Source: a virus. Taken from it: 64,000 nucleotides of DNA. The notes under the pieces are model-generated. The model saw only the letters and a program-made list of their open reading frames with translations. It did no database searches and was not told where the DNA came from. The DNA lies in IMG/VR virus record IMGVR_UViG_3300017991_000003, positions 129,019 to 193,018 of that record. One strand, 5' to 3'. Made by a program: the position numbers and the translations under genes. Positions within the stretch are counted from its first letter, which is position 1. Every line of letters begins with the position of its first letter. This document shows, piece after piece, positions 2,810 through 34,029 of the stretch.

Positions 2810-3339
2810 TTCTCCTCGATGAGCTTACGGAGGGCCTTCAGGCACATCCGCTGCCGACCGGCGGTCATACGCATCTTCGTGAATCGGTGACTATCGATCA
2901 ACCGATCAACAAGGATCAGGGCGAGGCCCTTGTTCTCGTCGCCCGCTTGAACAGGGATCGACATCTTCTTGGGCTTCTGCGCCTTCTTACGCCCTTTCTT
3001 GAGGGCCTTCACCGCAGCGGGCTCCGAGGCGTAGCGCATGGCGTGCTTGATGACCGGCCACTCGTCCGGGTGAGCTCCGACTTGCTGAGCCAGGCGTTTA
3101 CCAAGCTCGGTCAGCTCGCCACGGTCCCGGCCCACCGTACGCATCAGGCCCATGTTCTTGAGCTCGGCCTTGTAGGTTCCGACGGTCGACGCCTTGAGCA
3201 GCGTCTTACCAGTCCCGCGTGGGAACCGGCGTGTGATCTGAACGCAAGGCCATCGCTTGACCTGCTGCTGGTAGTGGTAGTAGAAGGCTAGCAGGTCCTG
3301 CTGCCGCTTGCTCAGCTCTCGGATTGTTTCGACAAGCAT
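2800..3339 (-). CDS. hypothetical basic protein, possible DNA-binding regulator
   Basis: Complete ORF. N-terminal LSKRQQDLLAFYY resembles the sigma-70 region-4 / LuxR-type HTH pattern; Lys/Arg-rich segment KKGRKKAQKPKK. First gene of the leftward operon. Confidence 0.45.
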   Translation of the reverse strand: MLVETIRELSKRQQDLLAFYYHYQQQVKRWPCVQITRRFPRGTGKTLLKASTVGTYKAELKNMGLMRTVGRDRGELTELGKRLAQQVGAHPDEWPVIKHAMRYASEPAAVKALKKGRKKAQKPKKMSIPVQAGDENKGLALILVDRLIDSHRFTKMRMTAGRQRMCLKALRKLIEEKWV

Positions 3340-3985
3340 GGGTAGGTGGTGGGGTAGAGGTGATCGACATGAGACTTATGCCACAGTCCCTGGTCTAAAA
3401 AGAGAGCCCAACCCGAGGGGGTTGAGCTCTCTGGAAGTGCCCGGGCCCGCCCCTTTCATCGCAGTCCAACGAGTGGGACAAGGGGGATGCCGTAAGGGCC
3501 CGGGCTTGTAGGTGCGGAGCCGTGCCAGGATCACGGCCCCGCGGTGCTGTGGAAGTAGCTTGGCCCCCCAAGGAGGTGGGATGAGCCGCCGTAGCTACGA
3601 TGAGGCTCGCAGTCGGGCATGGTGCTACCCGGCCAACAGCGTGGCGATACGCCGAGACCCGGATCGCCGCCGGATAAGGTGGCCCCCGTCGTGACGTGCT
3701 CAGCTCACGCTCGAGGGGTTGGAAGACCTGCCATCTAGGATCAGTGGGATCCCCATCCCTTTGCACTCCTCGGAGAGTGTGCCGCTCCTGCGGCTGATGT
3801 GATGGCAGGTGGAAGACACCCACAGGTAGCAAGAACCGGCCTGGATGACCTCTTCGTTGCCCTAGGACCGGGGTCAGAGCCTTCCGGGCGCGCCTGTGGG
3901 TGATTGGGAAAGCCGAGCACGTCATCAACGCCGCTTGTGCGTCTGCTTGGTTGGTGGAGACGTGTGACGCTGCTCGGCTTTTGTA

Positions 3986-6091: not shown

Positions 6092-6532
6092 TTACAGCGA
6101 ATCCAGGGCATCTAGGGCGTCTGTGAGGCCCTCAGCAGCCTCTTGAGCAGCGTCCGCCTTGGCGCTCTTCTTCCGCTTCTTCCCCTTCTTCTTGTGATGC
6201 AGGGCGGCCAGGCGAGCCCCCTGCTCCCGCTGAGCGTCCGTCACGGACTCCTCGCATAGGGTCTTGTACTCCGCCTCGGTGGGGATGACGCCCTCGGGTC
6301 GCGTCTTGGTGTCCGCGTAGGGGCGGTGGGCCCAGAAGAAGCAGACGTGGTCCGGGCAGTTCTTGATGGCGTCCCGGTAGCCCTCGTTGCCGACACAGGC
6401 TCGGCAGTTGAGGTCGACAGCGGATCGGAGGCTGCTACCGTGATCAGCTTTGACGGCGACGGTGGGGCGGGCGAGGCGGACGTCGTTCTCGACGCAATCG
6501 ATGATGTCAGGCTTGGTGGTCATGTGTGGCAC
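6092..6532 (-). CDS. hypothetical Cys-rich basic protein (146 aa)
   Basis: Complete ORF; six Cys including CRAC and CPDHVC; Lys-rich HHKKKGKKRKKSAK near the C-terminus suggests nucleic-acid binding. Divergent from the rightward operon starting at 6608. Confidence 0.5.
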   Translation of the reverse strand: MPHMTTKPDIIDCVENDVRLARPTVAVKADHGSSLRSAVDLNCRACVGNEGYRDAIKNCPDHVCFFWAHRPYADTKTRPEGVIPTEAEYKTLCEESVTDAQREQGARLAALHHKKKGKKRKKSAKADAAQEAAEGLTDALDALDSL

Positions 6533-6607
6533 TGGCTAGGAGTGTCAGGGTGGGAAAACTGTCTCCATATCTTGACAGAGGGGCGCCGGCTAGGCACGAT
6601 CCCTGGC
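6533..6607. promoter_or_regulatory. divergent intergenic region with inverted repeat CTGTC-N10-GACAG and TTGACA hexamer
   Basis: 75-bp gap between divergent gene starts 6532 (-) and 6608 (+); contains ctgtctccatatcttgacag. Promoter elements not confidently assignable. Confidence 0.3.
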
Positions 6608-7123
6608 ATGGAAACGACAACGACAGAGGCCCGCCCTGAGCTACAGCTTCGGCCGTTGGCCGGGCGGGTGATGATTCGAGTGGACGAGGCCCCCACGATG
6701 AGCGCAGGTACGCGAGGCCGTCAGGTCTATCTACCCGAGAGCGTCCAGAAGGAGGAGAAGGCGAACTACCGGTTCGGTACGGTCGTGGCCCTAGGGGACC
6801 CCGCGCTGCATCCGAAGACCGGCAGGCCGATCCCGTGGGCTGTGCATGTAGGCACCAAGGTCTGCTTCCAGTTCGGGGCTGACCTTACAGGTGAGCGAGA
6901 GCTCCAGTACACAGGAGGCGTGGCCCATGCGGTGTGCTTTGCTGAGGATCTGATTTACGCCATCGAGGATGATTATGAGATTCAGCCGACTCCCGTATGC
7001 CCCAACAGCGTAGGGGTTGCGCTACGCCGCGCTCTGATGAACGACGACTGGCTGACCGAGGAGCAGGTTGACACCCTGAGCCGGCGGCTCGCGTGCACGA
7101 TTGCCGGGGTTGTGCCCGCGTGA
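6608..7123 (+). CDS. GroES-like co-chaperonin (Cpn10 family) with C-terminal extension
   Basis: ATG at 6608; LRPLAGRVMIRVDEAPTMSAG...FGTVVALGDPA...PWAVHVGTKVCF...AEDLIYAIED aligns by eye with GroES (IRPLHDRVIVKR..TKSAGGIVL..GEVLAVGNG..VKVGDIVIF..ESDILAIVE). Confidence 0.6.
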   Translation: METTTTEARPELQLRPLAGRVMIRVDEAPTMSAGTRGRQVYLPESVQKEEKANYRFGTVVALGDPALHPKTGRPIPWAVHVGTKVCFQFGADLTGERELQYTGGVAHAVCFAEDLIYAIEDDYEIQPTPVCPNSVGVALRRALMNDDWLTEEQVDTLSRRLACTIAGVVPA

Positions 7124-7758
7124 GAATCGGCCGCACTTCCGATCTAGCGCCCTGGCCGCTCTTCATCGGCTTCTACACCCCGGAGTACGAGGAAGAGGCC
7201 GGGGAGCTTCGTAAGACCCTGGACGCGTTCGGGCTGCCACACGAGATCGAACCCGTCGAGTCCACGGGTAGCTGGTGGCTCAACACGCAGATCAAGGCTC
7301 AGATCATTTTGCTCAAGCTACGGGATCACCTGGGTCGACCGCTGGTCTACCTGGACTGCGATGCCCGAGTCAGGCAGGCTCCTACCTTGTTCCGCTCCCT
7401 GCATCACCAGTGCGACTTCGCGGCTCACTTCCGACCGGATCGACGATTCGAATGCGGTCGAGAGCTTTTGAGCGGGACGCTGTACTTCAGCGGCTCGCCG
7501 GCTTGCCAGGGCCTGGTACAGGCTTGGATCGATGAGAATGAGCGCCAGGCTGCGATCAAGAGTAGCAACAAGCTCCGCCTCATGGATCAGAGAACCTTGC
7601 AGACGGTCCTGGCTAAGGAGATCGAGGAGTACGGTCTTATGTTCACCGAGCTCCCTGCTACCTACGTTCAGATCTTCGACATCATGCGCGACGCCGGCGA
7701 CCCGGTGATCGAGCATCTCCAGGCCAGCCGCCGATTGAGGAACAAGGTTGGTCACTAG
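7120..7758 (+). CDS. putative glycosyltransferase (nucleotide-diphospho-sugar transferase-like, GT-A fold)
   Basis: GTG at 7120 overlaps the upstream TGA (alternative GTG at 7093). LVYLDCDARV and overall pattern resemble DxD-type sugar transferases; weak. Confidence 0.4.
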   Translation: MRIGRTSDLAPWPLFIGFYTPEYEEEAGELRKTLDAFGLPHEIEPVESTGSWWLNTQIKAQIILLKLRDHLGRPLVYLDCDARVRQAPTLFRSLHHQCDFAAHFRPDRRFECGRELLSGTLYFSGSPACQGLVQAWIDENERQAAIKSSNKLRLMDQRTLQTVLAKEIEEYGLMFTELPATYVQIFDIMRDAGDPVIEHLQASRRLRNKVGH

Positions 7759-7770
7759 ACTCATGACTCA

Positions 7771-8529
7771 ATGAAGCGACTGATCTACCAGGTCTGCGTT
7801 GGCCCGCCTGACCCGCTCTACGACAAGTGCACGCGCACTGTTGCGGCCTACTGCAAGCGCCTCGGCATCGCGTACATCAAGCAGACCGAGCCGGTCCTGA
7901 AGATCCGCCCGAACCCCGCTACGAGCGGGAGAAGCCAGAACGCTGTTGAACGACTAGGGTACCTGCCGATCTTCGAGAAGGAGAACGCACTCGCCCACCT
8001 TGGTGAGTTCGATCAGGTGGCCATTATCGACTCCGATATCTGGATCAGGGAGGAGGCACCCAACATCTTCGAGGAGCTCGAGGAGGGTGTTGACTTCATG
8101 GGGGTGGTCGAGCGAACCGCACCCATCACGCCGCAGTATGATCGGAAGCTCAAGAGCTACGCGCGCGGCCAGTACGGTCGTCCGGACTTCCCCTTCATGA
8201 ACATGGGGCTCATGCTCATGAACAAGAGCCTGCGCCGCTTCTGCCCCGAGCCTCCTCGGGAGTTTCTGGCGCGTCCGGAGTTCCAGGCCTTCGTGGATGG
8301 GCGGGGGGCCTACAAGTGGAGCACGGACCAGACCCTGCTCAACACCTGGTTGACCAGCGATCCCGACATGGTCGTGAAGCCTCTCGACTGGCGGTGGAAC
8401 GCCCTGTACGGGGCGCTGGTGCCCGGGTCGATAGAACAGGCCCACTTCGTTCACTTCTTCCTCAAGAACCACCTGGATAGCCAGGATCCCGACAAGCTCC
8501 TTCAGACACAAGGCCGCAAACGCGTTTAG
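7771..8529 (+). CDS. glycosyltransferase family 8-like protein
   Basis: AIIDSDIWI (DxD), FMNMGLMLMN, STDQTLLNTWL and HFVHFFLK match the order of conserved GT8 motifs. Confidence 0.55.
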   Translation: MKRLIYQVCVGPPDPLYDKCTRTVAAYCKRLGIAYIKQTEPVLKIRPNPATSGRSQNAVERLGYLPIFEKENALAHLGEFDQVAIIDSDIWIREEAPNIFEELEEGVDFMGVVERTAPITPQYDRKLKSYARGQYGRPDFPFMNMGLMLMNKSLRRFCPEPPREFLARPEFQAFVDGRGAYKWSTDQTLLNTWLTSDPDMVVKPLDWRWNALYGALVPGSIEQAHFVHFFLKNHLDSQDPDKLLQTQGRKRV

Positions 8530-8533
8530 CCCC

Positions 8534-9211
8534 ATGAGCAAAGTACCACCCCTATTCATTCACGTACCGAAGACCGGTGGCATGTCCGTGCACCATGGAC
8601 TAGGCCGCCTGATCCGAGAGACGCTGTCTCGAGACAAGCTGAAGTCTCTGGACTACGCGGCGACGATCGAGCAGCACATGCGCTCCAAGGGTGAGCCTAC
8701 TCCGGGGTACCGTCATGCCCGGTGGCGTGACGTCAAGCCGGGGTGGCGGGATAAGGGCCGCTGTTTCACGGTGCTGCGCAATCCGTGGTCCCGTGTGGTC
8801 AGTCGCTACCGGTTCGGACTCAATACCTGGGCGACGCGTCCCTACAACTACACGAACTTCGAGGAGTTTCTTGCGGAGCATGAGGAGTGGGGCCAAGAGC
8901 CGTACTACTGGCACCGCGCCGTGCGGGGCTGGTACCCTGCGGTGGATCACGTGACGGACGGCCAGGGCAACCTCAAGTGCGATGTTCTGCGTACGGAGCA
9001 CCTGGACGATGACATCTGGGCCTACTTCGGGAAGCGGCTACCTCCGCGCCGACGCAACGTCACGCGCGGCGATGCCGTGGACTACAAGACCTTCTACGAC
9101 GATCGAACCATCCAGCTGGTGGCAGACTGGTATGCCGAGGACATTGAGATGTTCGGCTTTGACTTCGACACGCCGGCGACGAAGAACCTGTGGGAGGGCC
9201 TAGGAGCATGA
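8534..9211 (+). CDS. sulfotransferase (PAPS-dependent, carbohydrate sulfotransferase-like)
   Basis: N-terminal LFIHVPKTGGMSV matches the 5'-phosphosulfate-binding motif (PKTGTT-like); TVLRNPWSRVVSRY matches the 3'-phosphate-binding motif (RDPxxRxxS). Confidence 0.65.
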   Translation: MSKVPPLFIHVPKTGGMSVHHGLGRLIRETLSRDKLKSLDYAATIEQHMRSKGEPTPGYRHARWRDVKPGWRDKGRCFTVLRNPWSRVVSRYRFGLNTWATRPYNYTNFEEFLAEHEEWGQEPYYWHRAVRGWYPAVDHVTDGQGNLKCDVLRTEHLDDDIWAYFGKRLPPRRRNVTRGDAVDYKTFYDDRTIQLVADWYAEDIEMFGFDFDTPATKNLWEGLGA

Positions 9212-9765
9212 TGGTTGGCAAGAACCAGGGCAGTCTCCTGGTTGTGCAGCAGATCCCAGAGAACAGCGTGGGTGCCGAGCTCGGCGTCTGGCGCGGGGAC
9301 ACATCAGCCCGCTTCCTAGCTAGCGGTAAGATCAAGCACTTGCACCTGGTGGATGCTTGGAGTCCCGACCCTTACTACGGCATCGAAGGCTACCGAGAGA
9401 AGTACGCCAAGCTGGTCGGATCGGGTGATCTCGACGCCTTTCGCGCCTACTACGACGCGGTCCTAGCCGGTGTCCGCAGGCGGTTTCAAGGCCAGCCCGT
9501 TACGATCCACCAAACCACTGTGCACGAGTTTCTGACTGAGCCCCCGGAGGATCTCGACTGGGTCTACGTGGACGCGAGTCACGAGTACCTCGACGTCCTT
9601 GATGATCTCGAGCGCTGTGCCCGTCACGTGGATCTGATCTTTGGGGATGACTACGGCAACAAGCCAGGGGTGGTTCGCGCTGTCGACGAGTTTGATCGGA
9701 CGCACCCCGAGTGGCACCTCCAGGTCCTGGGCAAGAACCAGTACCGCCTCGATAGGAAGGTCTGA
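9208..9765 (+). CDS. class I SAM-dependent methyltransferase (O-methyltransferase, Methyltransf_24-like)
   Basis: ATG at 9208 overlaps upstream TGA (ATGA). GAELGVWRGDTS glycine-rich motif, VDAW, DLDWVYVDASHEY and GDDY resemble the TylF/MycF-type fold. Confidence 0.55.
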   Translation: MMVGKNQGSLLVVQQIPENSVGAELGVWRGDTSARFLASGKIKHLHLVDAWSPDPYYGIEGYREKYAKLVGSGDLDAFRAYYDAVLAGVRRRFQGQPVTIHQTTVHEFLTEPPEDLDWVYVDASHEYLDVLDDLERCARHVDLIFGDDYGNKPGVVRAVDEFDRTHPEWHLQVLGKNQYRLDRKV

Positions 9766-10271
9766 TGCACCCATCAAGCAAGGCCAATATGAGGGAGGCC
9801 TGGGCACTCGTTCCCGACCCCCACCGCGTCGGGGACGTCCTTGATGTAGGCGGCGGTCGTGGCGGGGAATACCAGGAAATCTGGAAAGGGTGTGCTAGCT
9901 ACCGAACGGCTGACATTGCAGGTGACTGCGACCTCTTGATGCCTGGTGAGTACGAGATTCCACTTCCGGATGATTCGATCGATGTGGTGATTAGCGGCCA
10001 GACACTGGAGCATGTCCGCAACCCTTTCCGCCTCGTCACCGAGATGCGCCGGGTACTGAAGCCCGGTGGCTACGTGGTGATCATCGCCCCGTCCGCGGGC
10101 CCGGCCCATTTCAAGATCGACTGCTGGCGCTTCGTCCGGGATGCGTTCCGGGCCATCGCCCACGAGTGCGATCTAGAGGTTGTTGCCGATTGGATCTATA
10201 CCGGGGACTCTGGCCGAGGTCCTAACAAGCAGTGGAACGATCACACCTTCGTGGGGAGGAAGCCCGAGTGA
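9765..10271 (+). CDS. class I SAM-dependent methyltransferase (Methyltransf_11-like)
   Basis: VLDVGGGRG (motif I), DVVISGQTLEHV and LKPGGYVVI (motif III-like); 1-nt overlap with upstream stop. Confidence 0.6.
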   Translation: MHPSSKANMREAWALVPDPHRVGDVLDVGGGRGGEYQEIWKGCASYRTADIAGDCDLLMPGEYEIPLPDDSIDVVISGQTLEHVRNPFRLVTEMRRVLKPGGYVVIIAPSAGPAHFKIDCWRFVRDAFRAIAHECDLEVVADWIYTGDSGRGPNKQWNDHTFVGRKPE

Positions 10272-10969
10272 ATGCGTATGCCATCACGCTCTTCGGTAAC
10301 GAGACCAGCACCCAGAGCGTTGACAAGCTCTTTGAGTCCCATGTGGCGCTTGAGCAGCATTTCGATCTGATCCGCTTCCCGGCCATCACTCCTGACCAGA
10401 ACCAGGAGATCATGGCGGAGGAGCGCCTGGTGTGGACCTATCCCTGGGAAAACAACCGGCTGGATGGGATCACTGGCTTGAAGCTGCATCCCTACGCCAC
10501 ACGTGATCGGGGTGCGCGGATCGCCTGCTTCCTATCGCACTACCACCTCTGGAAGCTGGCCTGCGAGACTGGGGAGTGGGTGATGATCCTGGAGGACGAC
10601 ACGGTATTCACCAAGCACCTAGACCTAGACAGCCTGCCTTACCGTGAGTGGAGCGCCGTCGGCATCAACAACCCACTAGGGGCGACGCGTCGAGCGCCTG
10701 TGTTCCACGACAAGGTCGTGGCGCAGCGTCCGACTCCGATCATCGAGACCCCGTGGGTTGATGATGAAGTCAGGACCCCGCAGGGGCTGGCCGGCCACAG
10801 TGCCTACATGATCAGCCCTGAGCTGGCTAAGGACCTGATCCATCGAGCCCGTCATGCGGGTTGCTGGCCTAACGACGCATTGATGTGCAAGCAGCTGTAC
10901 CCTGGGAAGCTCGGGGTCACAACCGAGTTCTACACCCGAGTCCAGCAGACCCCGAGTACTCTGGCATGA
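10268..10969 (+). CDS. glycosyltransferase family 25-like protein
   Basis: GTG at 10268 (GTGA overlap). AYAITLFGNETS, IACFLSHYHLWKLA and VMILEDDTVF match GT25 (LPS/LOS glycosyltransferase) signature order. Confidence 0.55.
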   Translation: MNAYAITLFGNETSTQSVDKLFESHVALEQHFDLIRFPAITPDQNQEIMAEERLVWTYPWENNRLDGITGLKLHPYATRDRGARIACFLSHYHLWKLACETGEWVMILEDDTVFTKHLDLDSLPYREWSAVGINNPLGATRRAPVFHDKVVAQRPTPIIETPWVDDEVRTPQGLAGHSAYMISPELAKDLIHRARHAGCWPNDALMCKQLYPGKLGVTTEFYTRVQQTPSTLA

Positions 10970-11628
10970 AGGCGCGCGTCATCACCCTGATCCACAACAA
11001 GCGATCTGTTCAGGTAGCGAATCGGTGCATTGAGAGCGCTGCAAGGTTCGGCGTTGAGGTTGATATCTTCCCGGCCATCAGGGCGGCGGATAACCCCAAG
11101 GCCCTGATGTTCGAGCGGAAGTTCTCGATGAAGGGGTTTGAGGACAATGAGTACTCGCGTCTTGAGCCGTGCCTGGCTACGTTCCTCTCCCACTCTCGCC
11201 TATGGGAGCTTGCGGTGCTGCTAAAGGAGGCAGTCCTGATCCTCGAGCACGACGCTGTGTTCCAGGCTCCGCTCCCGGAGATGATCGAGGAGCGGGTGAA
11301 GATGCTCTGCAATCTGGGCAAACCGAGCTTCGGCTCCTTCAAGACCCCGAAAGAGGGGCTAGGCCCGTTCGTGTCCAAGCCCGGCGGCTATCTAGGCGGC
11401 GCCCACGCGTACCTGGTCCAGCCTGAGGCCGCTGAGGTGATGTTGGAGAAGGCCAAGACAGAGGCGGAGCCGGCCGATGTGTTCATCCAGAAGAAGCGCT
11501 TCCCCTGGATGACTGAGTACTACCCGTGGCCGGTGATCTGCGATGACTCCTTCTCCACCATCCAGAAGCCCGCAGGTTGCACGGCCAAGCACAACAAGGT
11601 CGAGATCATCGATCAGGATGAATCGTGA
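10966..11628 (+). CDS. glycosyltransferase family 25-like protein (second copy, divergent)
   Basis: ATG at 10966 (ATGA overlap). MKARVITLIHNKRS, ATFLSHSRLWELA and VLILEHDAVF mirror the GT25 pattern of the adjacent gene. Confidence 0.55.
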   Translation: MKARVITLIHNKRSVQVANRCIESAARFGVEVDIFPAIRAADNPKALMFERKFSMKGFEDNEYSRLEPCLATFLSHSRLWELAVLLKEAVLILEHDAVFQAPLPEMIEERVKMLCNLGKPSFGSFKTPKEGLGPFVSKPGGYLGGAHAYLVQPEAAEVMLEKAKTEAEPADVFIQKKRFPWMTEYYPWPVICDDSFSTIQKPAGCTAKHNKVEIIDQDES

Positions 11629-15306: not shown

Positions 15307-15711
15307 GTGGATCTGGGGGTCGTTCAGGTCTCTGATCAAGTCCTGACCCCGGGCCTGGGGGACGCTCCGGTCCGGGTGTCAGGTCTTCGTGCCCTCGTAC
15401 AGCAGGCGGTCATCGAGCTCATCTCGAACCCCCTGCCGGAGCGAGGGCGCGGGGCTGGGCTAGCTCAGCTCGTTGCAGCCCTGCCTCCCCAGAACCAGGC
15501 ACAAGCTCGTGGCACCTTTGCGCAGGCCGTGAGCTCCGCCAAGACGCACATCTTGGCCAACCAGCGCTACGCTTCCAACCTCACCGCGAACGAGCGGCTG
15601 CAAGACATGACCCTGCTTCGGGCCGAGCTCAATGGGCTCGTCTGGGAGATCGACATCAGGATCACCAACGTAGCCGGCGAGTCCGCCACCTTTGCCCTGC
15701 CGGTCAGCTGA
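15307..15711 (+). CDS. hypothetical protein (134 aa)
   Basis: GTG start 4 nt after upstream stop; 1-nt overlap with the next gene. Confidence 0.45.
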   Translation: MDLGVVQVSDQVLTPGLGDAPVRVSGLRALVQQAVIELISNPLPERGRGAGLAQLVAALPPQNQAQARGTFAQAVSSAKTHILANQRYASNLTANERLQDMTLLRAELNGLVWEIDIRITNVAGESATFALPVS

Positions 15712-16778
15712 TGACGTCCCACAAGAGTACCCACAAGGACAAACTACCCGGCGGACTTGCGGACAAGATGCGAGATGCCGTCTTCGCGGCCTCCGCCCTC
15801 AAGGCGGGAACCAAGGTGGAGATGGAGCATACTGATGATCCGCAGCTAGCCAAGGAGGTAGCTAAGGACCATCTCGCCGAGGATCCGCAGTACTACAAGA
15901 AGCTGCGGAAGATGGAGAAGAAGGCCGGTGGCTACGCCACCGGCTCGGTTGAGGTCGCCTCGCAGGTAGGTCGTAGGGTCTTGCCCGCCTGGAGCCGGTC
16001 GAAGAAGATTCCCGCGGGAGCGAAGCGTGCCGCAGGTATGGTTAGGCAGCAGCCGTTCGCCCCTGGTGGGAAAAACAGCCTGATCCCCGCTTCGTCGACG
16101 ACTCGCAAGCCGCTCCCGACCTTCACCTCGACATCCAAGCCGATGAGCATGGCCAAGGCCGCGATGCTGCAAGGCATGGTGAACACGCTGGCTAAAGAGG
16201 CGGGGTGGGTGGATAAGCTCAAAGGCGGAGCCAAGAAGGCTCCCGGTGTGATCGCCCGAGAGGGCGCAGGCATCGCAACGTGGGGAGTCGGGGAAGGGGT
16301 GGCCAACAAGCTCATTCCCCGGTGGAAGCCCCCGACCCCGCGCGTGAAAGTGGCTGGGGTTGATAAGGAGGCCATCCTTCAGGCCTTGCTATGGGCGCCG
16401 GCCCTGTATGAAGGGGCCAAGGCCGCCGGCCGCGTAGCGGCTAAACCGTTCAAATCCCTCAAGCGTGGGCTAGCCCCGAAGAGCCCCAAGATCCAAGGAC
16501 CGCACCCTGAAGTGCGCGCTGCGAACACCCCTGAGGTGGCTAAGGTCGCGGTATGGGGGACGCTCGCCCGTGTGGCTACTAAGCTGGCCCCTCGATTGGC
16601 TAAGGTGGCTCCGAAGACGAGTGCCCGTCTAGCGACGGCTACGCCGCAATCTACCAAGGCGCTCGCAGGACGCGCCGGTAAGGCGGCTGCTAGGGATGCG
16701 GCGCTGGGAGCCGGTACGATGGGCGCAGCTAACGCGGCAAGCCACGTGGCCCGACCGAAACGCCCTAACCCTCTGTAG
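15711..16778 (+). CDS. Lys/Ala-rich basic protein (355 aa), possible internal virion or DNA-associated protein
   Basis: Complete ORF; repeated AKxxxK segments; conserved-looking N-terminal block KVEMEHTDDPQLAKEVAKDHLAEDPQYYKKL. Confidence 0.5.
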   Translation: MTSHKSTHKDKLPGGLADKMRDAVFAASALKAGTKVEMEHTDDPQLAKEVAKDHLAEDPQYYKKLRKMEKKAGGYATGSVEVASQVGRRVLPAWSRSKKIPAGAKRAAGMVRQQPFAPGGKNSLIPASSTTRKPLPTFTSTSKPMSMAKAAMLQGMVNTLAKEAGWVDKLKGGAKKAPGVIAREGAGIATWGVGEGVANKLIPRWKPPTPRVKVAGVDKEAILQALLWAPALYEGAKAAGRVAAKPFKSLKRGLAPKSPKIQGPHPEVRAANTPEVAKVAVWGTLARVATKLAPRLAKVAPKTSARLATATPQSTKALAGRAGKAAARDAALGAGTMGAANAASHVARPKRPNPL

Positions 16779-16787: not shown

Positions 16788-19700
16788 ATGGCTGAGTTCA
16801 AGGACTGCCAGAGCCCGAGCCCCCTGACCGGGCGGATCGGCCCCGATCTGATCGAAGAGGTTGGCGGGGTCTCTCTGGCAGGTGTGTTGGCAGGCACGGA
16901 GACGCTGCCGGTTGGTGCAATCCCTGTCACAGCCCCGCTTTATGACAGTCCGAGCCCTACAGGTACGGCTATTGGACTGCGGTTGGATTCGAGCCTGACG
17001 GTTGATGCCCAGGGCCGGCTCAGTATTGCTGGAGCCCCATCGCCCGCGGCCCACGCCTCGAGCCACGAGCCTGGCGGGTCTGATCCGATCACCCCTGCTG
17101 CCTTTGACGGGCTTATCACCCCGCCGGTCGCCACGACGGTTGTCCTTGGCGGTGTCAAGGACGGTGACGGCGTCTCGATCGCCGGTGACGGCACCCTGAC
17201 CCTCGATCTGGCCGCCGCCAGTGGCCTCGAGATCAGCGGCGGGACCCTGAGACTGGCACTGGGTACCGGTGTCAGCTTCAGCGGCAACGATCTGGTCCTG
17301 GACGAGGCCACGGACTCCACGCTGGGCGGCATCATCGCCGGCACGGGTCTATCAGTCAGCTCGGGTACGGCGAGCCTCAACGCCCCCCAAGTCACGGGAG
17401 CCTCCCTAGCGGGCAGCACTCTGGTCTGGGATACCAGCCCGAGTGCCCAGAGTCCCAGCCCTGCTCTGAGGCTTCCGGCGAGCTTCACGTACACCAAGGC
17501 GATCCCGCAGTCGCAGCTGCCGACCGCGGCCTACGGCAGCCCGGGCAGCTCGAGCCCCAGCCCGCAGCTCGGCCTTGTCCGCATCTATGGCCCGAGCGAG
17601 GGCCTGACGCTTAGCGATGGGCTCCTGTCGCTGGCGACTCCGATCAGCACGGATCACCTACCCACCGCTACTGGTCTAGGTGGGCGAGGCATCGTCCGCG
17701 CGGGCCTACTTGACGGTACGGGCGTCTACGTCTCCAACAGTACGACCGGCCAGCTGGCGATCCTGATTGACGCCACGTCGGACACGTTGGCGTTGTCGTC
17801 GAGCGGGATCAAGGTCAAGTCCAATCGCTTCCTGGCGCTGACTGGCACCGGTAACCTCCCCAGCCCCGCGGCGAGCCCGAGCCCGGGGACTGACGGCTGG
17901 ATGACCGGGTCGGTTCGATTCACCAACGACCTGGGTGAGCCTGCGATCCGCACCGGTAACCAGCGGATCCGCTACGAGTTCGGGGCCAGCCCGTCTCCCG
18001 GGGCGATCCTGGCATCGGCTGATCTAAGCGATCTACTAACGTACCAGGAGATCAGCACACTCATCTCCCAGGCTGAGCTTGGTGTCGAGGTTTGGACTCC
18101 TGGGCGACCTGTGCAGGCAGAGCCGGGTACGAGCCTAGGTGCGTTGGCGGAGCTCTCGGCCGGGGATCGGTTCCTTACGAGCACGTCGTCCAACACCAAC
18201 CCCGGCGGTGACTGGAATGCGCACAACTGCGTGTTCGCGGTCTGGACGGAAACGGCTCCCGATACCTTTACCTGGGTCTATGAGACCCCCACGGTCAACA
18301 CCTGGTTCACAGACGACGTAACTGGGGACACGTGGGCTGTTGTTGTCGGCTCCCCCTCCCCGAAGTCGCCCTCACCGAACCCGTCGCGAGAGGCTTTCCG
18401 GTATCGCGCTCGTCAAGATGACACAGCATCGACGGCCCGAGCTGGTCGCGTGCGTGTCCCGACGACCAGTGGCCTCGTCATGGACGGCGAGGATATTCGG
18501 CTATCCCTCGCCTCGGACATCGGGGTCAGTACGGGCCTGCGTCTGATCACCCGAGCTCGCAACAACGCGCTAGCTCTCGATCTCAGCCGGTCCCAAGGGA
18601 TCTTGGAGCTCAACTCCGACGGGCGCCTTCAGGTTGCCGCGTCCTCGATCCAGGCCACGGAGATCGCGGACAACACCATCGTCCTCGACAACCTGGCCGC
18701 GGATCAGGTGACAGGCGGTACCAAAGACTTCATCGCCACGCAGTACGACGGGCTATCCGTCCGGCTGGTGGGGGACTCGGAAGACTTCCGCGTCACTGGG
18801 GCGCCTGTCAGCACGGCTACGACCATTCTGATCCACACCGAGGACGGTATCGGTGTGGCGGAGGAGTCGATCAACACTGACGCTCTCTCGGACGAGGCGG
18901 TTAGCTACAGCAAACTCCTGATGCCCACGGCCTCCGGTCTGGAGGACAACGGGCAGGACAAGGTCCGGGTCAAGCTCCAGACCCGCAGCGGCCTCGAGCG
19001 AACGGTGGATGGCCTGGCGGTCAACATCCATGACGTGGTGGACGATGCCACGATTGAGCTCGACACATCCACGGGCGGCTTGCGCGTCAAGACAGGTAGC
19101 CTGACGTCGTCGTACTTCGCGTCGGGCCTGGCGATCTCGGCCTCGGTCCTCACGCTGGGAGCCCCTATGCTCTCGTCGAGCGGGCTCCTGACCTTCTGCT
19201 ACCAGAGCCCTCTGGTCCTGACCGGCAGCCCCGGCTGCTTGACGATCGGCGAAGGCTTGATCAGCTCGCCGTATCTCGGCACCGGGTCGGTCAGCTACGC
19301 CAAGCTCAAGCTGGCGAGCCCCTCCGGCATCACGCAGACGGCCGGCGGTATCAAGGTCGACATCTCGACGGGTCTCGCCTTCAGCGGCAACCAGATCGTG
19401 GTCGACCAGGTGCCGGCAGACGCGATGGCACTGGATGCGGATTCGGCGTTGTACGCCGCTAGCCCGACCAGTCCGCTGACGCAGCTGGAGCTGAGCATCC
19501 GGGTCAGCAGCCCGTTCACGCAGACGGGTGGTACGCTGGATCTAGCGGACGAGGGTGTTCAGGTGAGTCACCTGGATCGCTCCAAGCTGCGCGGTAGCTT
19601 CCTGGCCAGCGGCCTCGAGGCCGGCCTAGGTACCCAGACCAGTCCCTTCGACTCTTGGGTCACGAGCCCGGCGTTCTACACCGGCTCGGACGCCCCGGGT

Positions 19701-20576
19701 ATGCGGGTGGCTACGCGGACGCGATCCGATCACGACTACCTGGATGCGGCGGGTCAGGGACAAGGCACGTTCGAGCCCTATAGCTTGACGCTGCTTCAAC
19801 TTGGTGGCACGCCCTCGGGCAGCGACTACCAGAACCGACTGGCCCCGACGCTCAACAGCATCGGTCTTCCGCACCTAGCCCTCGGCAACGAGACCCTGGC
19901 CCCCACGGACTCCGATCGGCTGCCGACTGGTTTCGGTAGCTACAAGGCGCTGGTCCAGAGCGGGAAGCTGCCCACGAGCCCGGTGACGAGCCGCGGCTGG
20001 GCAGTGGCTAACCTGTCGGAGAACATCCCAGCTGTCCGAGTCGGTCCGGGCCTCAGCATCACGGCTGCGGGCTTCGTGGTTCCGAGCGATGTCCAGGCGG
20101 ATCAGATCCTCCTGGGCACCACGTCTCGCGAGACCAGTCCGCGCGGGGTCTCGAGTCTTGCGCTTGTGCGTGACGGGGGATTGAGCAGCCCGGTCACGGA
20201 TGGGGCGCTGGCGCTCGGCTACGACGTATCGGACTTCGAGGTCACCTCGGCGCTTGGCCTTGGCCGACGTCAGGCGTACCAAGAGGAGTACACGGGCGCC
20301 TCGGTTCCCGCAGCGGCGAGCGGGTACTACACCTTCGCTCTGACGCTGGGGAGCTCGCAAGGCCTTGTGCCCGGCACGGTGTCGGTCCACGTCAACGGCC
20401 TACGTCTCGAAAGCCCCTTCTTCAGCTACACCAGCCCCTCGATCACCTCGAAGGAGGTGTACCTCAACGAGTCGGCAAGCCCTGGCCCCAACCTGGCCTA
20501 CACGTTGAGCCAGTCTACTAGCCCGGACGTTCTTGACCGGGTTGTCATTCGCTATCGAACCCGTCCGACCTCATGA
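16788..20576 (+). CDS. large fibrous structural protein (1262 aa) with recurring SPSP motifs
   Basis: Uninterrupted 3.8-kb ORF with Ser/Thr/Gly/Ala/Leu-rich fibre-like repeats (GTLTLDLAAASGLEISGGTLRLALGTG...) and at least eight S-P-S-P motifs with varying codons. Confidence 0.6.
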   Translation: MAEFKDCQSPSPLTGRIGPDLIEEVGGVSLAGVLAGTETLPVGAIPVTAPLYDSPSPTGTAIGLRLDSSLTVDAQGRLSIAGAPSPAAHASSHEPGGSDPITPAAFDGLITPPVATTVVLGGVKDGDGVSIAGDGTLTLDLAAASGLEISGGTLRLALGTGVSFSGNDLVLDEATDSTLGGIIAGTGLSVSSGTASLNAPQVTGASLAGSTLVWDTSPSAQSPSPALRLPASFTYTKAIPQSQLPTAAYGSPGSSSPSPQLGLVRIYGPSEGLTLSDGLLSLATPISTDHLPTATGLGGRGIVRAGLLDGTGVYVSNSTTGQLAILIDATSDTLALSSSGIKVKSNRFLALTGTGNLPSPAASPSPGTDGWMTGSVRFTNDLGEPAIRTGNQRIRYEFGASPSPGAILASADLSDLLTYQEISTLISQAELGVEVWTPGRPVQAEPGTSLGALAELSAGDRFLTSTSSNTNPGGDWNAHNCVFAVWTETAPDTFTWVYETPTVNTWFTDDVTGDTWAVVVGSPSPKSPSPNPSREAFRYRARQDDTASTARAGRVRVPTTSGLVMDGEDIRLSLASDIGVSTGLRLITRARNNALALDLSRSQGILELNSDGRLQVAASSIQATEIADNTIVLDNLAADQVTGGTKDFIATQYDGLSVRLVGDSEDFRVTGAPVSTATTILIHTEDGIGVAEESINTDALSDEAVSYSKLLMPTASGLEDNGQDKVRVKLQTRSGLERTVDGLAVNIHDVVDDATIELDTSTGGLRVKTGSLTSSYFASGLAISASVLTLGAPMLSSSGLLTFCYQSPLVLTGSPGCLTIGEGLISSPYLGTGSVSYAKLKLASPSGITQTAGGIKVDISTGLAFSGNQIVVDQVPADAMALDADSALYAASPTSPLTQLELSIRVSSPFTQTGGTLDLADEGVQVSHLDRSKLRGSFLASGLEAGLGTQTSPFDSWVTSPAFYTGSDAPGMRVATRTRSDHDYLDAAGQGQGTFEPYSLTLLQLGGTPSGSDYQNRLAPTLNSIGLPHLALGNETLAPTDSDRLPTGFGSYKALVQSGKLPTSPVTSRGWAVANLSENIPAVRVGPGLSITAAGFVVPSDVQADQILLGTTSRETSPRGVSSLALVRDGGLSSPVTDGALALGYDVSDFEVTSALGLGRRQAYQEEYTGASVPAAASGYYTFALTLGSSQGLVPGTVSVHVNGLRLESPFFSYTSPSITSKEVYLNESASPGPNLAYTLSQSTSPDVLDRVVIRYRTRPTS

Positions 20577-21112
20577 CTCTCAAGCGCGTCACTTGGGTAG
20601 GTGATCGTCACCGCCCCCGTCCTCGCTACCGCGGTTTCCGTCGCGGCGTCCCTCAGCTAGTGACCAAAGAGGTTGCTGATCTCATGATTCGGGATCACGG
20701 TCCTGATGTGATCGTGGCTGATCGACTAACTAAGGTGGCTGAGCATGTGGGCGTTGATGTCGAGCGTCGCGAGTTTGAGCAGACTACCCGCGGCGAGGGC
20801 GATGAGCGTCCGCGGTGGCGCGGTCCTGAGGCTAACGCTCCCGCGTACCGAGGCACCCCATCGCACCGGATCAACTTCTCGTGGTCGGCTCGAGGAGCTA
20901 CCTTTCGGCCTGTGCAATACCGAGTGTACCGCGGGACAAGCCTGGATAACCTCCAGCTCCTGACCACGCAGGACGCTGACTCAGCTCGAGTGAGCGTTGA
21001 TACCACAGTCGCGGGCCGCACGACGTACTACTACGGTGTGTCCTATGTCGACAACCGCGGCTTCGAGAGCGAGATCACGATCGCTGGATCAGCCACCACA
21101 CCCACTTTCTGA
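20573..21112 (+). CDS. hypothetical protein (179 aa), paralog A with FN3/Ig-like C-terminus
   Basis: ATGA overlap with upstream stop. Shares KRVTWVGDR, DLMIRD..VIVADRLTKVAEHVG, RWRGP, YRVYRGT and TYYYGVSYVDNRGFESE with the next gene. Confidence 0.5.
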   Translation: MTLKRVTWVGDRHRPRPRYRGFRRGVPQLVTKEVADLMIRDHGPDVIVADRLTKVAEHVGVDVERREFEQTTRGEGDERPRWRGPEANAPAYRGTPSHRINFSWSARGATFRPVQYRVYRGTSLDNLQLLTTQDADSARVSVDTTVAGRTTYYYGVSYVDNRGFESEITIAGSATTPTF

Positions 21113-21131: not shown

Positions 21132-21674
21132 ATGACGACCTCTATTCGAAAGCGGGTGAGCTGGTTCGGTGACCGGACCACGCGCATCCCCAAGCATCGC
21201 GGGCTTCACCCGAGCGGTACTCCGACGGAGATGCCTGAAGATGATGCCAACGACCTGATCCGAGACTATCCCAGTCACCTCGTGGTGGCTGACCCGATCA
21301 CGTTGGTTGCGGAGCACATCGGTGAAGAGGTGGACCGGAAGGAGTTCTACGACGCTGGATACCGCTCCTACGGTACGCAGCCTGTGAAGTGGAAAGGCCC
21401 TGCGGTGACCTCGGTCACGCCGACGGCCAGCCCGGCTACGTCGCCTACGATCGTGTGGGACGCGATGCCCGCTCGGTTTGCTCCTCAGAGCTATCAGCTG
21501 TACCGAGGTACCGCGGCAGCGCCGAAAACGACGCTGGTGGGCTCGACTACCCTCCTGACGCTCAGCGAGGCCCCGCCGGCTCAAGGCACCTACATCTACA
21601 GCGTGACCTACACGGATCCCCACGGGTATGAGAGCGACGTCGGTACGTCGGTGTCTCACTACTCGTCTCCGTGA
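21132..21674 (+). CDS. hypothetical protein (180 aa), paralog B
   Basis: KRVSWFGDR, DLIRD..LVVADPITLVAEHIG, KWKGP, YQLYRGT and TYIYSVTYTDPHGYESD; clear tandem duplicate of 20573..21112. Confidence 0.5.
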   Translation: MTTSIRKRVSWFGDRTTRIPKHRGLHPSGTPTEMPEDDANDLIRDYPSHLVVADPITLVAEHIGEEVDRKEFYDAGYRSYGTQPVKWKGPAVTSVTPTASPATSPTIVWDAMPARFAPQSYQLYRGTAAAPKTTLVGSTTLLTLSEAPPAQGTYIYSVTYTDPHGYESDVGTSVSHYSSP

Positions 21675-21697: not shown

Positions 21698-22720
21698 ATG
21701 GTCCACATCAAACAGGTTCGTGGGGTCCCCAGCTATCTGAGCTTGGCGACCCCGCTCACCCCGCAGGGTGACACGGTGACCCAGGTCATCACTGGGCAGA
21801 AGACGTGGACCACGAGCGCGAGCACTAACGACCGTAGCGCGCTGGCCGCTAGTGTCCCCGGACGCTTCGACTCGAACGGTACGGACGAGGCTGCTGCGGC
21901 GTTGTTCGGGGCCTCAAGCGGTATCTTCCGCTCGACGCTCGGGTTCTGGGGTAACAGCGAGGCCAATGGCATGCTGTCCTGGGCGCCGATCGCCACCCCG
22001 GTCAATCAGGACTTCGGCCGGTTCATGATCACCAACAGCCGCACGGCTACTGGTGATGCTTGGGACCCCGCGACTAATGGTGGTGCGGATACCGGCGTCA
22101 GCGGCTTGGTGCAGTACTACGCGGAGTTCCCGGCGCTGCGGCAGTCCGTGCCTGTGGCTTCGCCATCTGACTACGCAGATGAGACGGGGCTACCGGCGCC
22201 TCCTCTTACTTTCGGCCACCTCAAGCTGTTCGCTCGTCAGGGCAACCCAGCCTACGGGTATGAGGCAAGCCCTGGGCGGGAGTTCGGGCTTAGCTACCTG
22301 TCCTACAGCGTTCCTTCGGGATCGATCGAAGAAGACATCGCGACATATCAGCGCGCTGATGTGCGGTACGGGGCGGCTCAGGTATCGCACATCCATGTGG
22401 ACACGTGGAGCCCGTCGACCACGATCTACCCCTTCGTGGCTCCGGGAGACGTTCGCATCACGCAGCTTGCTCTCATCGGGTCAGCAACCGTAGCCACATC
22501 TACCCTATCTGGCTACAACCACGCGCAGGTGAGTCCGGGCTACCTCTTCTCCGCAAGCCCTGTGTCGGCTATTGGCGCCGGCTCCCCGGTGAGCTACTCG
22601 CCTGATCAGTACCGAACGATGGCCCAGGGGGATTGGCTCAGCCTTAGCTGGGCCGGCTCCTCGAGCCCCCTCACCAACCTGACGATCAGCGTCTCCTATA
22701 ACCCCATCTATCCGAGCTGA
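21698..22720 (+). CDS. hypothetical structural protein (340 aa)
   Basis: Complete ORF; Ser/Thr/Gly-rich; within the structural operon. Confidence 0.5.
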   Translation: MVHIKQVRGVPSYLSLATPLTPQGDTVTQVITGQKTWTTSASTNDRSALAASVPGRFDSNGTDEAAAALFGASSGIFRSTLGFWGNSEANGMLSWAPIATPVNQDFGRFMITNSRTATGDAWDPATNGGADTGVSGLVQYYAEFPALRQSVPVASPSDYADETGLPAPPLTFGHLKLFARQGNPAYGYEASPGREFGLSYLSYSVPSGSIEEDIATYQRADVRYGAAQVSHIHVDTWSPSTTIYPFVAPGDVRITQLALIGSATVATSTLSGYNHAQVSPGYLFSASPVSAIGAGSPVSYSPDQYRTMAQGDWLSLSWAGSSSPLTNLTISVSYNPIYPS

Positions 22721-31941: not shown

Positions 31942-34029
31942 TTGTCAACATTCCTATACGACCTTCTAGGCATGGTTCCTGGCCGACTCGGTGTCTATAA
32001 TCCGTTGAGCCTGCGCACCTTAGACCCGGAGCACGCAAACAAGATGGCGGCCGAAACTCCGAATAGGTTCAGTGTCCCAGTTGAGACGCTGATCCTTCAA
32101 CTGCTCGAGGAGCAGCACCCTCAACTACATGTCGCCCCCGGGTCGGCTACCTATGACACCCTCGTCACCCCGATGGCGTTGGTGCTTCAGCCGTTCCGCG
32201 ACTACCTGCGCGTGATTCAGAGGAACCAGAGCCTCAAGAACGCGCAGACCATGCTGCCCGAGGAGCTGGACCGCCTGGCCAGTAACTTCCTGGTCGACCG
32301 TCGCCAAGGTACCAAGGCACTCGGGGTTCAGCGGGTGCTTTTCCCCACGCTCCAGCAGGTGTCCGTGCCGGCTTCCGCGCGCTTCACGGACGACAACGGC
32401 AACAGGTACCAGCCGGTGACCTCGGTTCAGGTGAGCACCACCACCTTGGCTAATAACGTGGTGGCTGCTACCGGGGAGTACTACGTGGATGTCCCGGTCA
32501 TCGCTGAGCAGCCTGGGGAGGGCAGCGCCGCCCTCGCCGGGGCTGTGACCCAGTTCAGCGGTATTCCCGGAGCGGCACGTACGTTCAACGCGTCTGACTA
32601 CTTCCAGGGCTCGGCTGGCGAGAGCAACAGCCAGCTCGTGGCCCGCATCAAGAGCAGTGTGGCTAACCGAGAGCTGGTCAAGGCCGCCTCGATCGAAGCC
32701 CTCCTGCTTGAGACTTTCCCCAGCATCAGGGACCTGGCTGTCCGGGGCTATGGGGATAGTCTGATGACCCGCGATACGGTGGATGTGGTCCTGGCCAGCC
32801 ACAAGCTGTTCGAGCAGAGCTTTGCCCAGAAGGTGAACCTACCTCTGGACTCTGAGGGCGAGGTTCAGTGGATCACGGACGCTGGAGAGGAGATCACGGC
32901 CCCCATCGGCGGGTTCGTGGGCGCTGTCTACGACCTGACGGGTAAGGACTTCAACGCCCTCAACGTCACCTTGGACGGCCAGATCTACGAGGTCGTGAGT
33001 GCCCAGCCGGGCAACAAGCTCCGCTTCCTGAACTCGGACGACCCCGACGCGGTCAACAACGATTACCGCATCACCCGCGTCGAGGAGGTGCCTGTGGCCC
33101 CCGGCGGGGACGCTGTGAAGGTCTTGCGGCTCGATCGAGCGCTCTCTGATACCGCTGAGGTCGACGTCTCCACCAATCTCGACAGCGTGCCGTATACCGT
33201 GATCGGCCGGTTCAATACCAGCCGCTTCCATGTGGGCGGTAAGGTGGATGTCTACGTGGACTCCACAGCTGATATCGAGCAGACGGTCACGGTCAGCAAC
33301 CTACCCGCGGTCAACGACCAGACCCTGGATGTGGGCGAGATCCCGCTGACTCAGAGCTTCATCAACGACAACGGCGCCAACCTTTTCGAAGGTAACACAG
33401 GCTTTACAGCTCCGGTAATCGCTGTGACCAAGGTCGAGCAGCTGGATCCCACCAACAGCAGCGTAGTGATTCGGGAGCTCACCCCTGACGTCCACTACGT
33501 CCAGGTCACCGCAGCGAGCCGCGGCCGCTTCACGCAGGCCACCAACGACGTACTGGTCATCCGAGGTACCGAGGTTGACCCAGTCACCGGCGAGGAGGTC
33601 CCTCTCTTCGTGGGGCAGCGGCTCAAGGTCACCTACATCACCAACCCGGACATTCCTTTGATTCAGGACTTCGTAGATGCCTCGGATCAGAGGGACTTGA
33701 CCAAGGACATTCAGATCCTCACGCCGACCGTGGTGCTCTTGAATCTGGATCTTGAGTACGCAGGTACCTTGCCTGTGGGTGATGTTCAGACGATCATCAG
33801 GGAGTACATCGAATCCAAGGGCCTCGGCGCCTCGGTCTCGGTGAACGAGATCGTCACGGTCCTCTCTTACTTCGGGGTTACGGACGTCACCATGCCGGTA
33901 CGCCTACGCAGCCGACAGGCCACAGGAAGCGGCTCCTTCACTTTCAACGAGAGCGAGGATCGCCTCTCCGTCGACAGCAACTCGGTGTTCGTGCCTGACT
34001 CGGGCCTGAACATCACCAAGGTCGGGTAA
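31942..34029 (+). CDS. structural protein (695 aa), possibly baseplate or tail component
   Basis: Complete ORF at the head of the long rightward structural operon; beta-rich composition; no specific motif verified. Confidence 0.5.
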   Translation: MSTFLYDLLGMVPGRLGVYNPLSLRTLDPEHANKMAAETPNRFSVPVETLILQLLEEQHPQLHVAPGSATYDTLVTPMALVLQPFRDYLRVIQRNQSLKNAQTMLPEELDRLASNFLVDRRQGTKALGVQRVLFPTLQQVSVPASARFTDDNGNRYQPVTSVQVSTTTLANNVVAATGEYYVDVPVIAEQPGEGSAALAGAVTQFSGIPGAARTFNASDYFQGSAGESNSQLVARIKSSVANRELVKAASIEALLLETFPSIRDLAVRGYGDSLMTRDTVDVVLASHKLFEQSFAQKVNLPLDSEGEVQWITDAGEEITAPIGGFVGAVYDLTGKDFNALNVTLDGQIYEVVSAQPGNKLRFLNSDDPDAVNNDYRITRVEEVPVAPGGDAVKVLRLDRALSDTAEVDVSTNLDSVPYTVIGRFNTSRFHVGGKVDVYVDSTADIEQTVTVSNLPAVNDQTLDVGEIPLTQSFINDNGANLFEGNTGFTAPVIAVTKVEQLDPTNSSVVIRELTPDVHYVQVTAASRGRFTQATNDVLVIRGTEVDPVTGEEVPLFVGQRLKVTYITNPDIPLIQDFVDASDQRDLTKDIQILTPTVVLLNLDLEYAGTLPVGDVQTIIREYIESKGLGASVSVNEIVTVLSYFGVTDVTMPVRLRSRQATGSGSFTFNESEDRLSVDSNSVFVPDSGLNITKVG

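Follow-up and report, generated by a model that had tools for sequence, protein, structure and literature searches.

The subject of this analysis is the gene found at positions 16788-20576 (+ strand) of a 64,000-nucleotide stretch of viral DNA, here called the window, which covers positions 129,019 to 193,018 of the IMG/VR record IMGVR_UViG_3300017991_000003. Its 1262-residue product is very probably a virion fibre of an uncultured tailed phage of ~180-195 kb from aquatic samples, and is marked by an excess of the Ser-Pro (SP) dipeptide, which in it and in three unrelated large proteins of the window is put at three to four times the level of chance or of comparable phage fibres. The initial annotation of the locus had described a repeat-rich, fibre-like protein carrying at least eight SPSP-type motifs, with variable codons, and had proposed that these form Ser/Pro-rich linkers that may be O-glycosylated by the products of a glycan operon upstream of the gene.

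The open reading frame and its eight SPSP motifs are borne out. The codon-position GC contents of the gene (0.62/0.55/0.79) are as for a real gene, with a third-position value typical of window genes, and the N-terminus, MAxFxxC, is kept in all homologues. SPSP occurs eight times (overlaps counted), at residues 9, 54, 222, 256, 363, 401, 522 and 527, i.e. always within the first 530 residues and with flanks exactly as first quoted at each site, while 20,000 composition-preserving shuffles gave a mean of 0.08 and a maximum of 3 copies. At these sites Ser is encoded by AGC, AGT, TCC, TCG or TCT and Pro by CCC, CCG or CCT.

The Ser-Pro dipeptide excess

The robust statistical unit is the SP dipeptide, SPSP being two adjacent copies of it and a subset that varies by lineage. 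In the fibre, SP is found 36 times versus 10.1 expected (Poisson P 2e-10) and is the sole strongly deviating dipeptide (z 8.1), Thr-Pro (TP; 6 versus 8.2) and Ala-Pro (AP; 9 versus 8.1) being flat. Three further proteins of the window, all encoded on the + strand, are SP-rich: a giant protein of 3406 residues (34036-44256; 53 SP versus 22.6, P 4e-8), which directly follows a baseplate wedge gene and gives only a weak TIG/IPT match; a 1512-residue protein (57743-62281; 37 versus 10.6, P 2e-10); and a 340-residue protein encoded two genes downstream of the fibre (21698-22720; 8 versus 3.4). When the four proteins are pooled, SP reaches 134 versus 46.6 (z 12.8), and TP (39 versus 44) and AP (42 versus 41) stay flat. 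Similar motifs had initially been noted in the 1512- and 3406-residue proteins, which is correct for SP and SPxSP, as in ASPASPGASPG of the 1512-residue protein or in SPGVPSPVVPSP, but not for SPSP itself, of which both have 0 copies; the 340-residue protein, too, contains SPxSP and ASP clusters and no SPSP. In the 3406-residue protein many SP sites lie in ‘h-x-V-S-P-x’ contexts that resemble the first strands of immunoglobulin (Ig)/TIG-like domains. The flanks of SP sites show weak preferences, namely A/G at -1, where bulky aliphatics are disfavoured, G/S at +2 and Y/A/V at -2, with hydrophobic or aromatic residues at -2 and +4/+5. Thr, Asp and Asn are not enriched before Pro, Asp-Pro (DP) being even depleted (1 versus 5.1).

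The excess is specific to these proteins. Among 147 fibres that share with the present one a repeat of the phi29 head-fibre type (see below), SP is found 274 times versus 417 expected (ratio 0.66), with TP at 503 versus 498; none of them exceeds a ratio of 1.5, their high-GC-like subset stands at ~0.6, and the T4 proteins gp34-37 have no SP excess. A general property of fibres is, therefore, rejected, as are composition and high GC, given that the shuffles never came near the observed counts and that the high-GC-like control fibres are at ~0.6. The other ~50 proteins of the window contain 26 SP versus 47.9 expected (ratio 0.54), which is an ordinary baseline because the repeat-sharing fibres are likewise low, and a special avoidance of SP in these proteins was thus discarded. 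A 1410-residue protein (52127-56359) alone stands out among them, with 0 SP versus 7.0 expected (P 9e-4), at the opposite extreme from the SP-rich proteins that surround it.

At the DNA level, the density of the pentanucleotide AGCCC is 5.1 per kb when the SP-rich genes are read in frame 0 and 0.2-1.1 per kb in the remaining frames and in other genes. Third codon positions vary freely at the 18 SP sites that are invariant in four homologues, and 5/18 sites switch between the AGY and TCN families of Ser codons. Such synonymous changes and family switches at invariant sites indicate that SP is conserved at the protein level, as had initially been proposed, and a DNA-level motif or codon artefact is ruled out both by them and by the confinement of the AGCCC excess to frame 0 of the SP-rich genes. 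In these genes Ser before Pro is encoded by AGC/AGT in 84% of the cases versus 48% elsewhere, AGY being generally preferred before codons that start with C; the preference may reflect codon-pair bias or be the trace of an origin from GGC-CCN (Gly-Pro). Cryptic paralogy of the four SP-rich proteins was also rejected, as neither BLASTP nor hhalign (probabilities <=1%) detects mutual homology.

Homologues of the fibre were searched for in a 5.8-billion-cluster protein database, by a profile search of 1.84 billion representative proteins and by a metagenome scan. Whole-protein matches are limited, in the first, to four clusters at 56-62% identity, and the profile search and metagenome scan added fragments and a fifth lineage at 38-41% identity (P0005; L010, L015, L016). 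With five lineages recovered, the protein can be regarded as defining a new family. SP is in excess in all of them (27-36 versus 8-10 expected, across 38-62% identity) and also in fragments (13 versus 2.9 in P0006; 6 versus 1.5 in P0011), and SPSP is present in 8, 6, 3, 2 and 0 copies. Orthologues of the 340-residue protein are SP-rich as well (12 versus 3.5 in L010; 9 versus 2.9 in L001). Among the four closer lineages, 53% of the Ser residues that precede Pro are invariant, versus 19% of other Ser residues (Fisher p 2e-4), and Pro is equally conserved with or without a preceding Ser. Half of the SP sites of the fibre (18/36) are invariant across four lineages and six across five. Of the 28 SP sites of the distant lineage, 14 coincide in the alignment with an SP site of the other clade, 19 are within three columns of one and nine are private, so that SP is conserved better than average, with a degree of turnover.

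The SPSP sites themselves (all on the + strand) illustrate the whole range of behaviours. Four lineages share S11 and P12 of site 1 (16812-16823, residues 9-12), where the distant one has TPVT; site 2 (16947-16958, residues 54-57) is likewise unchanged in the four, and a deletion has removed it from the distant lineage; the first SP of site 3 (17451-17462, residues 222-225) and the second SP of site 6 (17988-17999, residues 401-404) are invariant in all five; the PSP of site 4 (17553-17564, residues 256-259) is invariant in four; site 5 (17874-17885, residues 363-366) falls in a segment made variable by indels; and sites 7 and 8 (18351-18377), within GSPSPKSPSPNPS at residues 521-533, belong to a lineage-specific insertion. 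The description of these regions as Ser/Pro-rich linkers turned out to be inaccurate: SP is mostly an isolated dipeptide in ordinary, partly conserved sequence. A low-complexity Pro/Ser linker (PT/PS box) was rejected on the grounds that the 36 SP are distributed over the full length of the protein, that the longest low-complexity run, GSPSPKSPSPNPS, has 13 residues and that the 18 invariant sites are inside conserved sequence.

The fibre and its gene neighbourhood

The assignment as a fibre is supported by three features, namely two phi29-type repeats, a C-terminus modelled as Ig-like and the position of its gene, which belongs to a conserved structural block and has a baseplate wedge gene nearby. 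No Pfam-A family matches the protein by hmmscan at E<=0.01, and nothing was found in PHROGs, NCBIfam, PDB sequences, a phage database (megablast, tblastn) or the IMG/VR scan. The two repeats (17121-17387, + strand, residues ~112-200; PPVATTVVLGGVKDGDGVSIAGDGTLTL ... EATDSTLGGIIAGTGLSVSSGTASL) fit the pattern ‘PxATxxxLGGVKxGxGhxhxxDGTLSh’ and are 45% identical to those of the PF11133-positive protein P0009 (BLASTP, E 2e-14). Nearly all of the 236 matches of the family-profile search are confined to residues ~107-210, more than 200 proteins sharing this segment alone, and the segment-sharing proteins match PF11133 (phi29 head fibre, Phage_head_fibr) at E 1e-34 to 1e-57; the link of the fibre to PF11133 is, thus, transitive only. 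In phi29 gp8.5 the PF11133-type repeat builds a trimeric supercoiled fibre, and the present, putative fibre is probably trimeric. Like such fibres, it has repeats of the ‘LPxATxxxLGGVKxGxG...DGTLSV’ type, but only two, compared with up to ~19; it differs also in that PF11133-type fibres are SP-poor (0.66) and in that its other ~1150 residues are without known relatives. It has, in addition, six ‘SGL...G..L.L’ motifs (versus 0.6 expected), and BLASTP self-comparison reveals no longer internal repeats, so that the initial label of repeat-rich is only weakly true.

The last ~100 residues are predicted to form an Ig-like/CnaB-like beta-sandwich (20265-20573, + strand, residues ~1160-1262), which is the only part modelled confidently by AlphaFold2 (AF2) when residues 940-1262 were submitted (predicted local distance difference test, pLDDT, ~80). 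Foldseek matches it to RrgB pilin domains at E~1e-3, i.e. to generic Ig-like folds and to no annotated tail-fibre family, and all four of its SP sites lie in predicted inter-strand loops. The AF2 monomer of residues 1-600 reached a pLDDT of 33. The fibre could be pictured as a long shaft, rich in beta structure, that is preceded by an N-terminal part with the two phi29 head-fibre-type repeats and ends in a distal Ig-like domain. At residues 804-817 (19197-19238), in CYQSPLVLTGSPGCL, two SP sites that are invariant lie between the likewise invariant C804 and C817; these cysteines could form a disulfide or a metal site in the shaft.

The gene order common to all lineages is a 134-residue protein, the fibre, one or more ~180-residue proteins and the SP-rich protein of ~340-400 residues, with the wedge homologue and the giant protein (3400-3636 residues across lineages, its versions in the relatives having 3449-3636) further downstream. 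In the window, the homologue of a baseplate wedge subunit (31942-34029, + strand; phrog_6, E 1.4e-17) is encoded 11 kb downstream of the fibre gene and marks the region as part of the structural module of a tailed phage; in IMG/VR, a related contig of 183 kb is classed as viral. The fibre gene is directly preceded by that of a DUF5661 protein (15711-16778, + strand), syntenic in the four closer lineages. Directly downstream, two tandem paralogues (20573-21112 and 21132-21674) encode proteins of 179 and 180 residues (34% identity, E 3e-31), in place of which other lineages have a single copy of ~180-195 residues; they may be fibre assembly or attachment proteins. Further along, and unusually for a phage, the large structural-looking genes have in their midst that of a 238-residue protein (49612-50328) with a clear PAS domain (E 8e-11).

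The glycan cassette

The glycan operon postulated at first is real, and richer than described. The cassette (7093-11628, all genes on the + strand) comprises four glycosyltransferase-like genes, two methyltransferase genes and one sulfotransferase gene. The first gene (7093-7758) has in L010 an orthologue (46% identity) that matches the Nucleotide-diphospho-sugar transferase family PF03407. The second (7771-8529) encodes a protein of 252 residues, which is the most conserved member of the cassette (48-71% identity, T4-like phages included). It gives no Pfam match and, by profile search, no PDB match, and the motifs that are invariant in it, a DxD motif in ‘D-S-D-I-W-I-R’ along with ‘NMGLMxMN’ and ‘HFVHFFLK’, were recognized as DxD and GT8-like by eye only; it looks like a hitherto unrecognized family of GT-A/GT8-like glycosyltransferases, and a GT8-like gene is also part of the L010 cassette. 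There follow the gene of a sulfotransferase (8534-9211, Sulfotransfer_2), those of two S-adenosylmethionine-dependent methyltransferases (9190-10271; Methyltransf_24, then Methyltransf_11), one of which has an L010 orthologue that matches also the rhamnosyl O-methyltransferase/CmcI family, and those of two GT25 glycosyltransferases (10232-10969 and 10966-11628; PF01755, 49.1 and 38.4 bits for a cutoff of 24, E 8e-13 and 2e-9). The second GT25 gene probably starts at the ATG at 10966, which overlaps the stop codon of the first (ATGA), and the two appear to be translationally coupled.

The eight cassette proteins have no transmembrane-like hydrophobic segment (maximal 19-residue Kyte-Doolittle mean <=1.3), i.e. 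they are soluble. The Pfam search of the cassette revealed none of the Gtr-type, Wzx/Wzy or acyltransferase membrane components of O-antigen modification, a result with which soluble glycosyltransferases of the type acting on the lipopolysaccharide (LPS) core remain compatible. Immediately upstream, positions 6326-7123 encode a 265-residue Cpn10/GroES-like protein with an extra N-terminal extension of ~100 residues; a Cpn10-domain protein precedes the cassette in L010 as well (2532-3020), i.e. in both deep lineages.

The cassette is present in every fibre-bearing lineage for which context is available, all five fibre lineages having both an SP-rich fibre and the cassette. In L010 the cassette and the fibre block adjoin each other and are read in the same direction; in the window, three small minus-strand genes separate the two. 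Its distribution is much broader than that of the fibre. The GT25 proteins have 954 relatives at E<=1e-10, all tagged PF01755, and the core of the cassette (the 252-residue protein, the sulfotransferase and both GT25) is found at 41-50% identity in hundreds of contigs of T4-like aquatic phages, both marine and freshwater, which have 30-39% GC versus 63% here and contain the markers gp32, RNaseH, PhoH and T4_baseplate. In these contigs genes for sugar-nucleotide metabolism (PMM, or HAD with NTP_transferase) are sometimes near the cassette. Searches of the phage database did not retrieve the cassette from any cultured phage. Weak GT25-like matches (26-28% identity) were obtained in the Synechococcus phages S-8S55 and S-8S53 (OQ504983.1, 29517-29834; OQ504982.1, 17112-17444), where the segments are inside genes annotated as 2-oxoglutarate (2OG)-Fe(II) oxygenases, which hints at hydroxylase-glycosyltransferase fusions reminiscent of collagen-modifying enzymes.

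Possible roles of the Ser-Pro sites

The SP excess is real, Ser-specific, exerted at the protein level, conserved, clade-restricted and convergent in unrelated proteins, and the high SP density of the fibre and of the three other large proteins appears to be the result of selection on the proteins themselves. Because one dipeptide is enriched convergently in unrelated proteins of one genome, a shared trans-acting factor is the most economical explanation. Among the possible factors, the phage's own cassette is placed first, tentatively and with odds that fall somewhat short of even, as the agent of O-glycosylation of the Ser residues of SP sites: it is the only candidate factor that is visible, virion glycosylation has a precedent, and GT25-type enzymes that act on proteins exist, such as collagen galactosyltransferase. 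The presence of the cassette in every lineage with context, its contiguity with the fibre block in L010 and its soluble enzymes, among which no membrane component of O-antigen modification was detected, also speak for it. The connection between the SP excess and the cassette is one that we infer. A trans-acting enzyme would recognize Ser-Pro and O-modify its Ser; the reaction would take place in the host cytoplasm through the soluble products of the cassette, i.e. the GT-A/GT8-like and the two GT25 glycosyltransferases, the sugar O-methyltransferases and the sulfotransferase; and the exposed fibres would gain a glycan coat before or during assembly. As for the precedent, mycobacteriophages encode glycosyltransferases that glycosylate their virion proteins (Freeman et al. 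2023, as cited in PMC12582341).

Several observations weigh against glycosylation by the cassette. The flank preferences of SP fit an S-P-G/S beta-turn between strands, about half of the SP sites keep their positions, as would be expected of structural residues, and both AF2 models are too poor to show whether SP is exposed. To our knowledge, no bacterial or phage O-glycosyltransferase has been documented for a bare Ser-Pro sequon, and GT25 enzymes are known to us for LPS and hydroxylysine, not for serine. Moreover, the cassette is among early or small genes in four T4-like contigs (L018, L020-L022) and in at least 80 T4-like loci of IMG/VR (L023-L102). The latter were retrieved with a T4-like GT25 as the query and viewed with 10-kb flanks; within these flanks, the 80 loci contain no fibre gene and only two ORFs of at least 700 residues, none of them SP-rich. 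L020-L022 likewise have no fibre gene within 10 kb of the cassette, and the contig L018 stops before one is reached. In T4-like phages the cassette is accompanied by none of the genes of the fibre side and has the features of an independent mobile module, and, since it occurs there far from fibre genes, its adjacency to the fibre in the present phage is weak evidence. Finally, clusters of this type in pelagimyophages have been read as modifying the host O-chain against superinfection, which is itself an inference (PMC7029224).

Several of these features lend weight to a purely structural explanation, the main rival, which is a real possibility, though one held with less than even confidence: SP would form S-P-[G/S] tight turns or strand caps between short beta-strands, SPSP would be a double turn or a short hinge, Ser would be unmodified and the cassette would act elsewhere, e.g. 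on host LPS/O-antigen against superinfection. Pro-Gly is the classic type II turn, and the flanks of SP are turn-like (small at -1, G/S at +2, hydrophobic/aromatic at -2 and +4/+5). All four SP sites of the modelled C-terminal sandwich fall in predicted inter-strand loops, half of the sites in four lineages (and 6 in five) are positionally invariant, and the 3406-residue protein combines strand-like ‘h-x-V-S-P-x’ contexts with a weak TIG match. In T4-like phages the genomic position of the cassette is unconnected with fibre genes, and such clusters are read as LPS modification in the literature (PMC7029224). What a structural turn leaves unexplained is that four non-homologous proteins converge on SP while 147 repeat-sharing fibres and the T4 fibres do not, that the turn-forming Thr, Asp and Asn are not enriched before Pro (DP is found once versus 5.1 expected), and that SP appears also in lineage-specific insertions such as GSPSPKSPSPNPS.

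The Ser specificity and the convergent enrichment in unrelated proteins could also point to another trans-acting factor that recognizes Ser-Pro, with its gene in another part of the ~193-kb genome or in the host, such as a proline-directed kinase, a prolyl hydroxylase followed by hydroxyproline (Hyp) glycosylation, a prolyl isomerase or an assembly chaperone. The conserved Cpn10-domain protein that immediately precedes the cassette in the two deep lineages, the cyanophage GT25-like segment inside a gene annotated as a 2OG-Fe(II) oxygenase and the fact that the survey covers 64 kb of the 193-kb genome speak for such a factor. It is, nevertheless, improbable: no kinase, 2OG oxygenase/prolyl 4-hydroxylase or peptidyl-prolyl isomerase was found in the 64-kb window or in syntenic loci, even at relaxed thresholds, and a chaperone that reads a dipeptide signal would be without precedent. 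Prolyl hydroxylation with Hyp glycosylation, in particular, was rejected as the cassette has no 2OG oxygenase even at E<=1. An artefact of composition, codon-pair bias or cryptic paralogy, devoid of function, is the least credible explanation of all and is largely refuted. The preference for AGY before Pro is in its favour, and against it stand the shuffles, the frame specificity, the codon-family switching, the high-GC-like controls, the lack of homology among the four proteins and the persistence of the excess in five lineages at 38-62% identity.

Comparison with known systems brings out what would be new if Ser O-glycosylation by the cassette were correct. With mycobacteriophage virion glycosylation the present phage shares several soluble phage-encoded glycosyltransferases and exposed virion proteins as the proposed acceptors. 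In mycobacteriophages the modification was reportedly demonstrated by mass spectrometry, on capsid and tail-tube subunits, and we know of no Ser-Pro sequon described for it; here, the candidate acceptors are fibres, and the enzymes are GT25 and GT8-like proteins, a sulfotransferase and O-methyltransferases. O-glycosylated linkers rich in Pro/Thr/Ser are well known in the PT boxes of actinobacterial cellulases, in mucin-type proteins and in the Ser-Pro/Hyp modules of extensins. The fibre resembles them in having Ser beside Pro, as a context for O-glycosylation, and short SPSP/SPxSP clusters, but its SP sites are mostly isolated, with no run longer than 13 residues, half of them are positionally conserved and no prolyl hydroxylase was found. 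The closest known counterparts of the cassette are the ‘LPS-related’ glycosyltransferase clusters of pelagimyophages and cyanomyophages (PMC7029224), its homologues in T4-like aquatic contigs being 43-50% identical. There they are among early or small genes, whereas here a few kb lie between the cassette and the fibre block downstream of it, and the host O-chain role published for the pelagimyophage clusters (PMC7029224) would not explain the SP signal. The fibre is, thus, of a new family that makes use of a repeat module already known, and the cassette is of a known, functionally uncharacterized class of aquatic-phage glycosyltransferase clusters. No description of a Ser-Pro signature on phage fibres is known to us or was found in the literature searched, although absence there is no proof.

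In its broadest form, Ser O-glycosylation by the cassette would make SP the sequon of an undescribed cytoplasmic protein O-glycosylation system of large aquatic phages, which coats fibres with a methylated and possibly sulfated glycan, and would make virion glycosylation, rather than remodelling of host LPS, the general role of the cassette in the ocean virome; this extension is doubtful and on balance unlikely. Should SP be purely structural, a clean, clade-specific convergent dipeptide signature in fibre proteins would remain, albeit of limited general interest. If, instead, the SP sites are modified, they would provide the first sequence-readable sequon for phage virion glycosylation and the first case on fibres, the organelles of host recognition. 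A new function would then be assigned to a glycosyltransferase/methyltransferase/sulfotransferase cassette that is widely distributed among uncultured T4-like phages of aquatic habitats and is now assumed to remodel host LPS, and virion glycoproteins would become predictable from metagenomes by means of a readable sequon.

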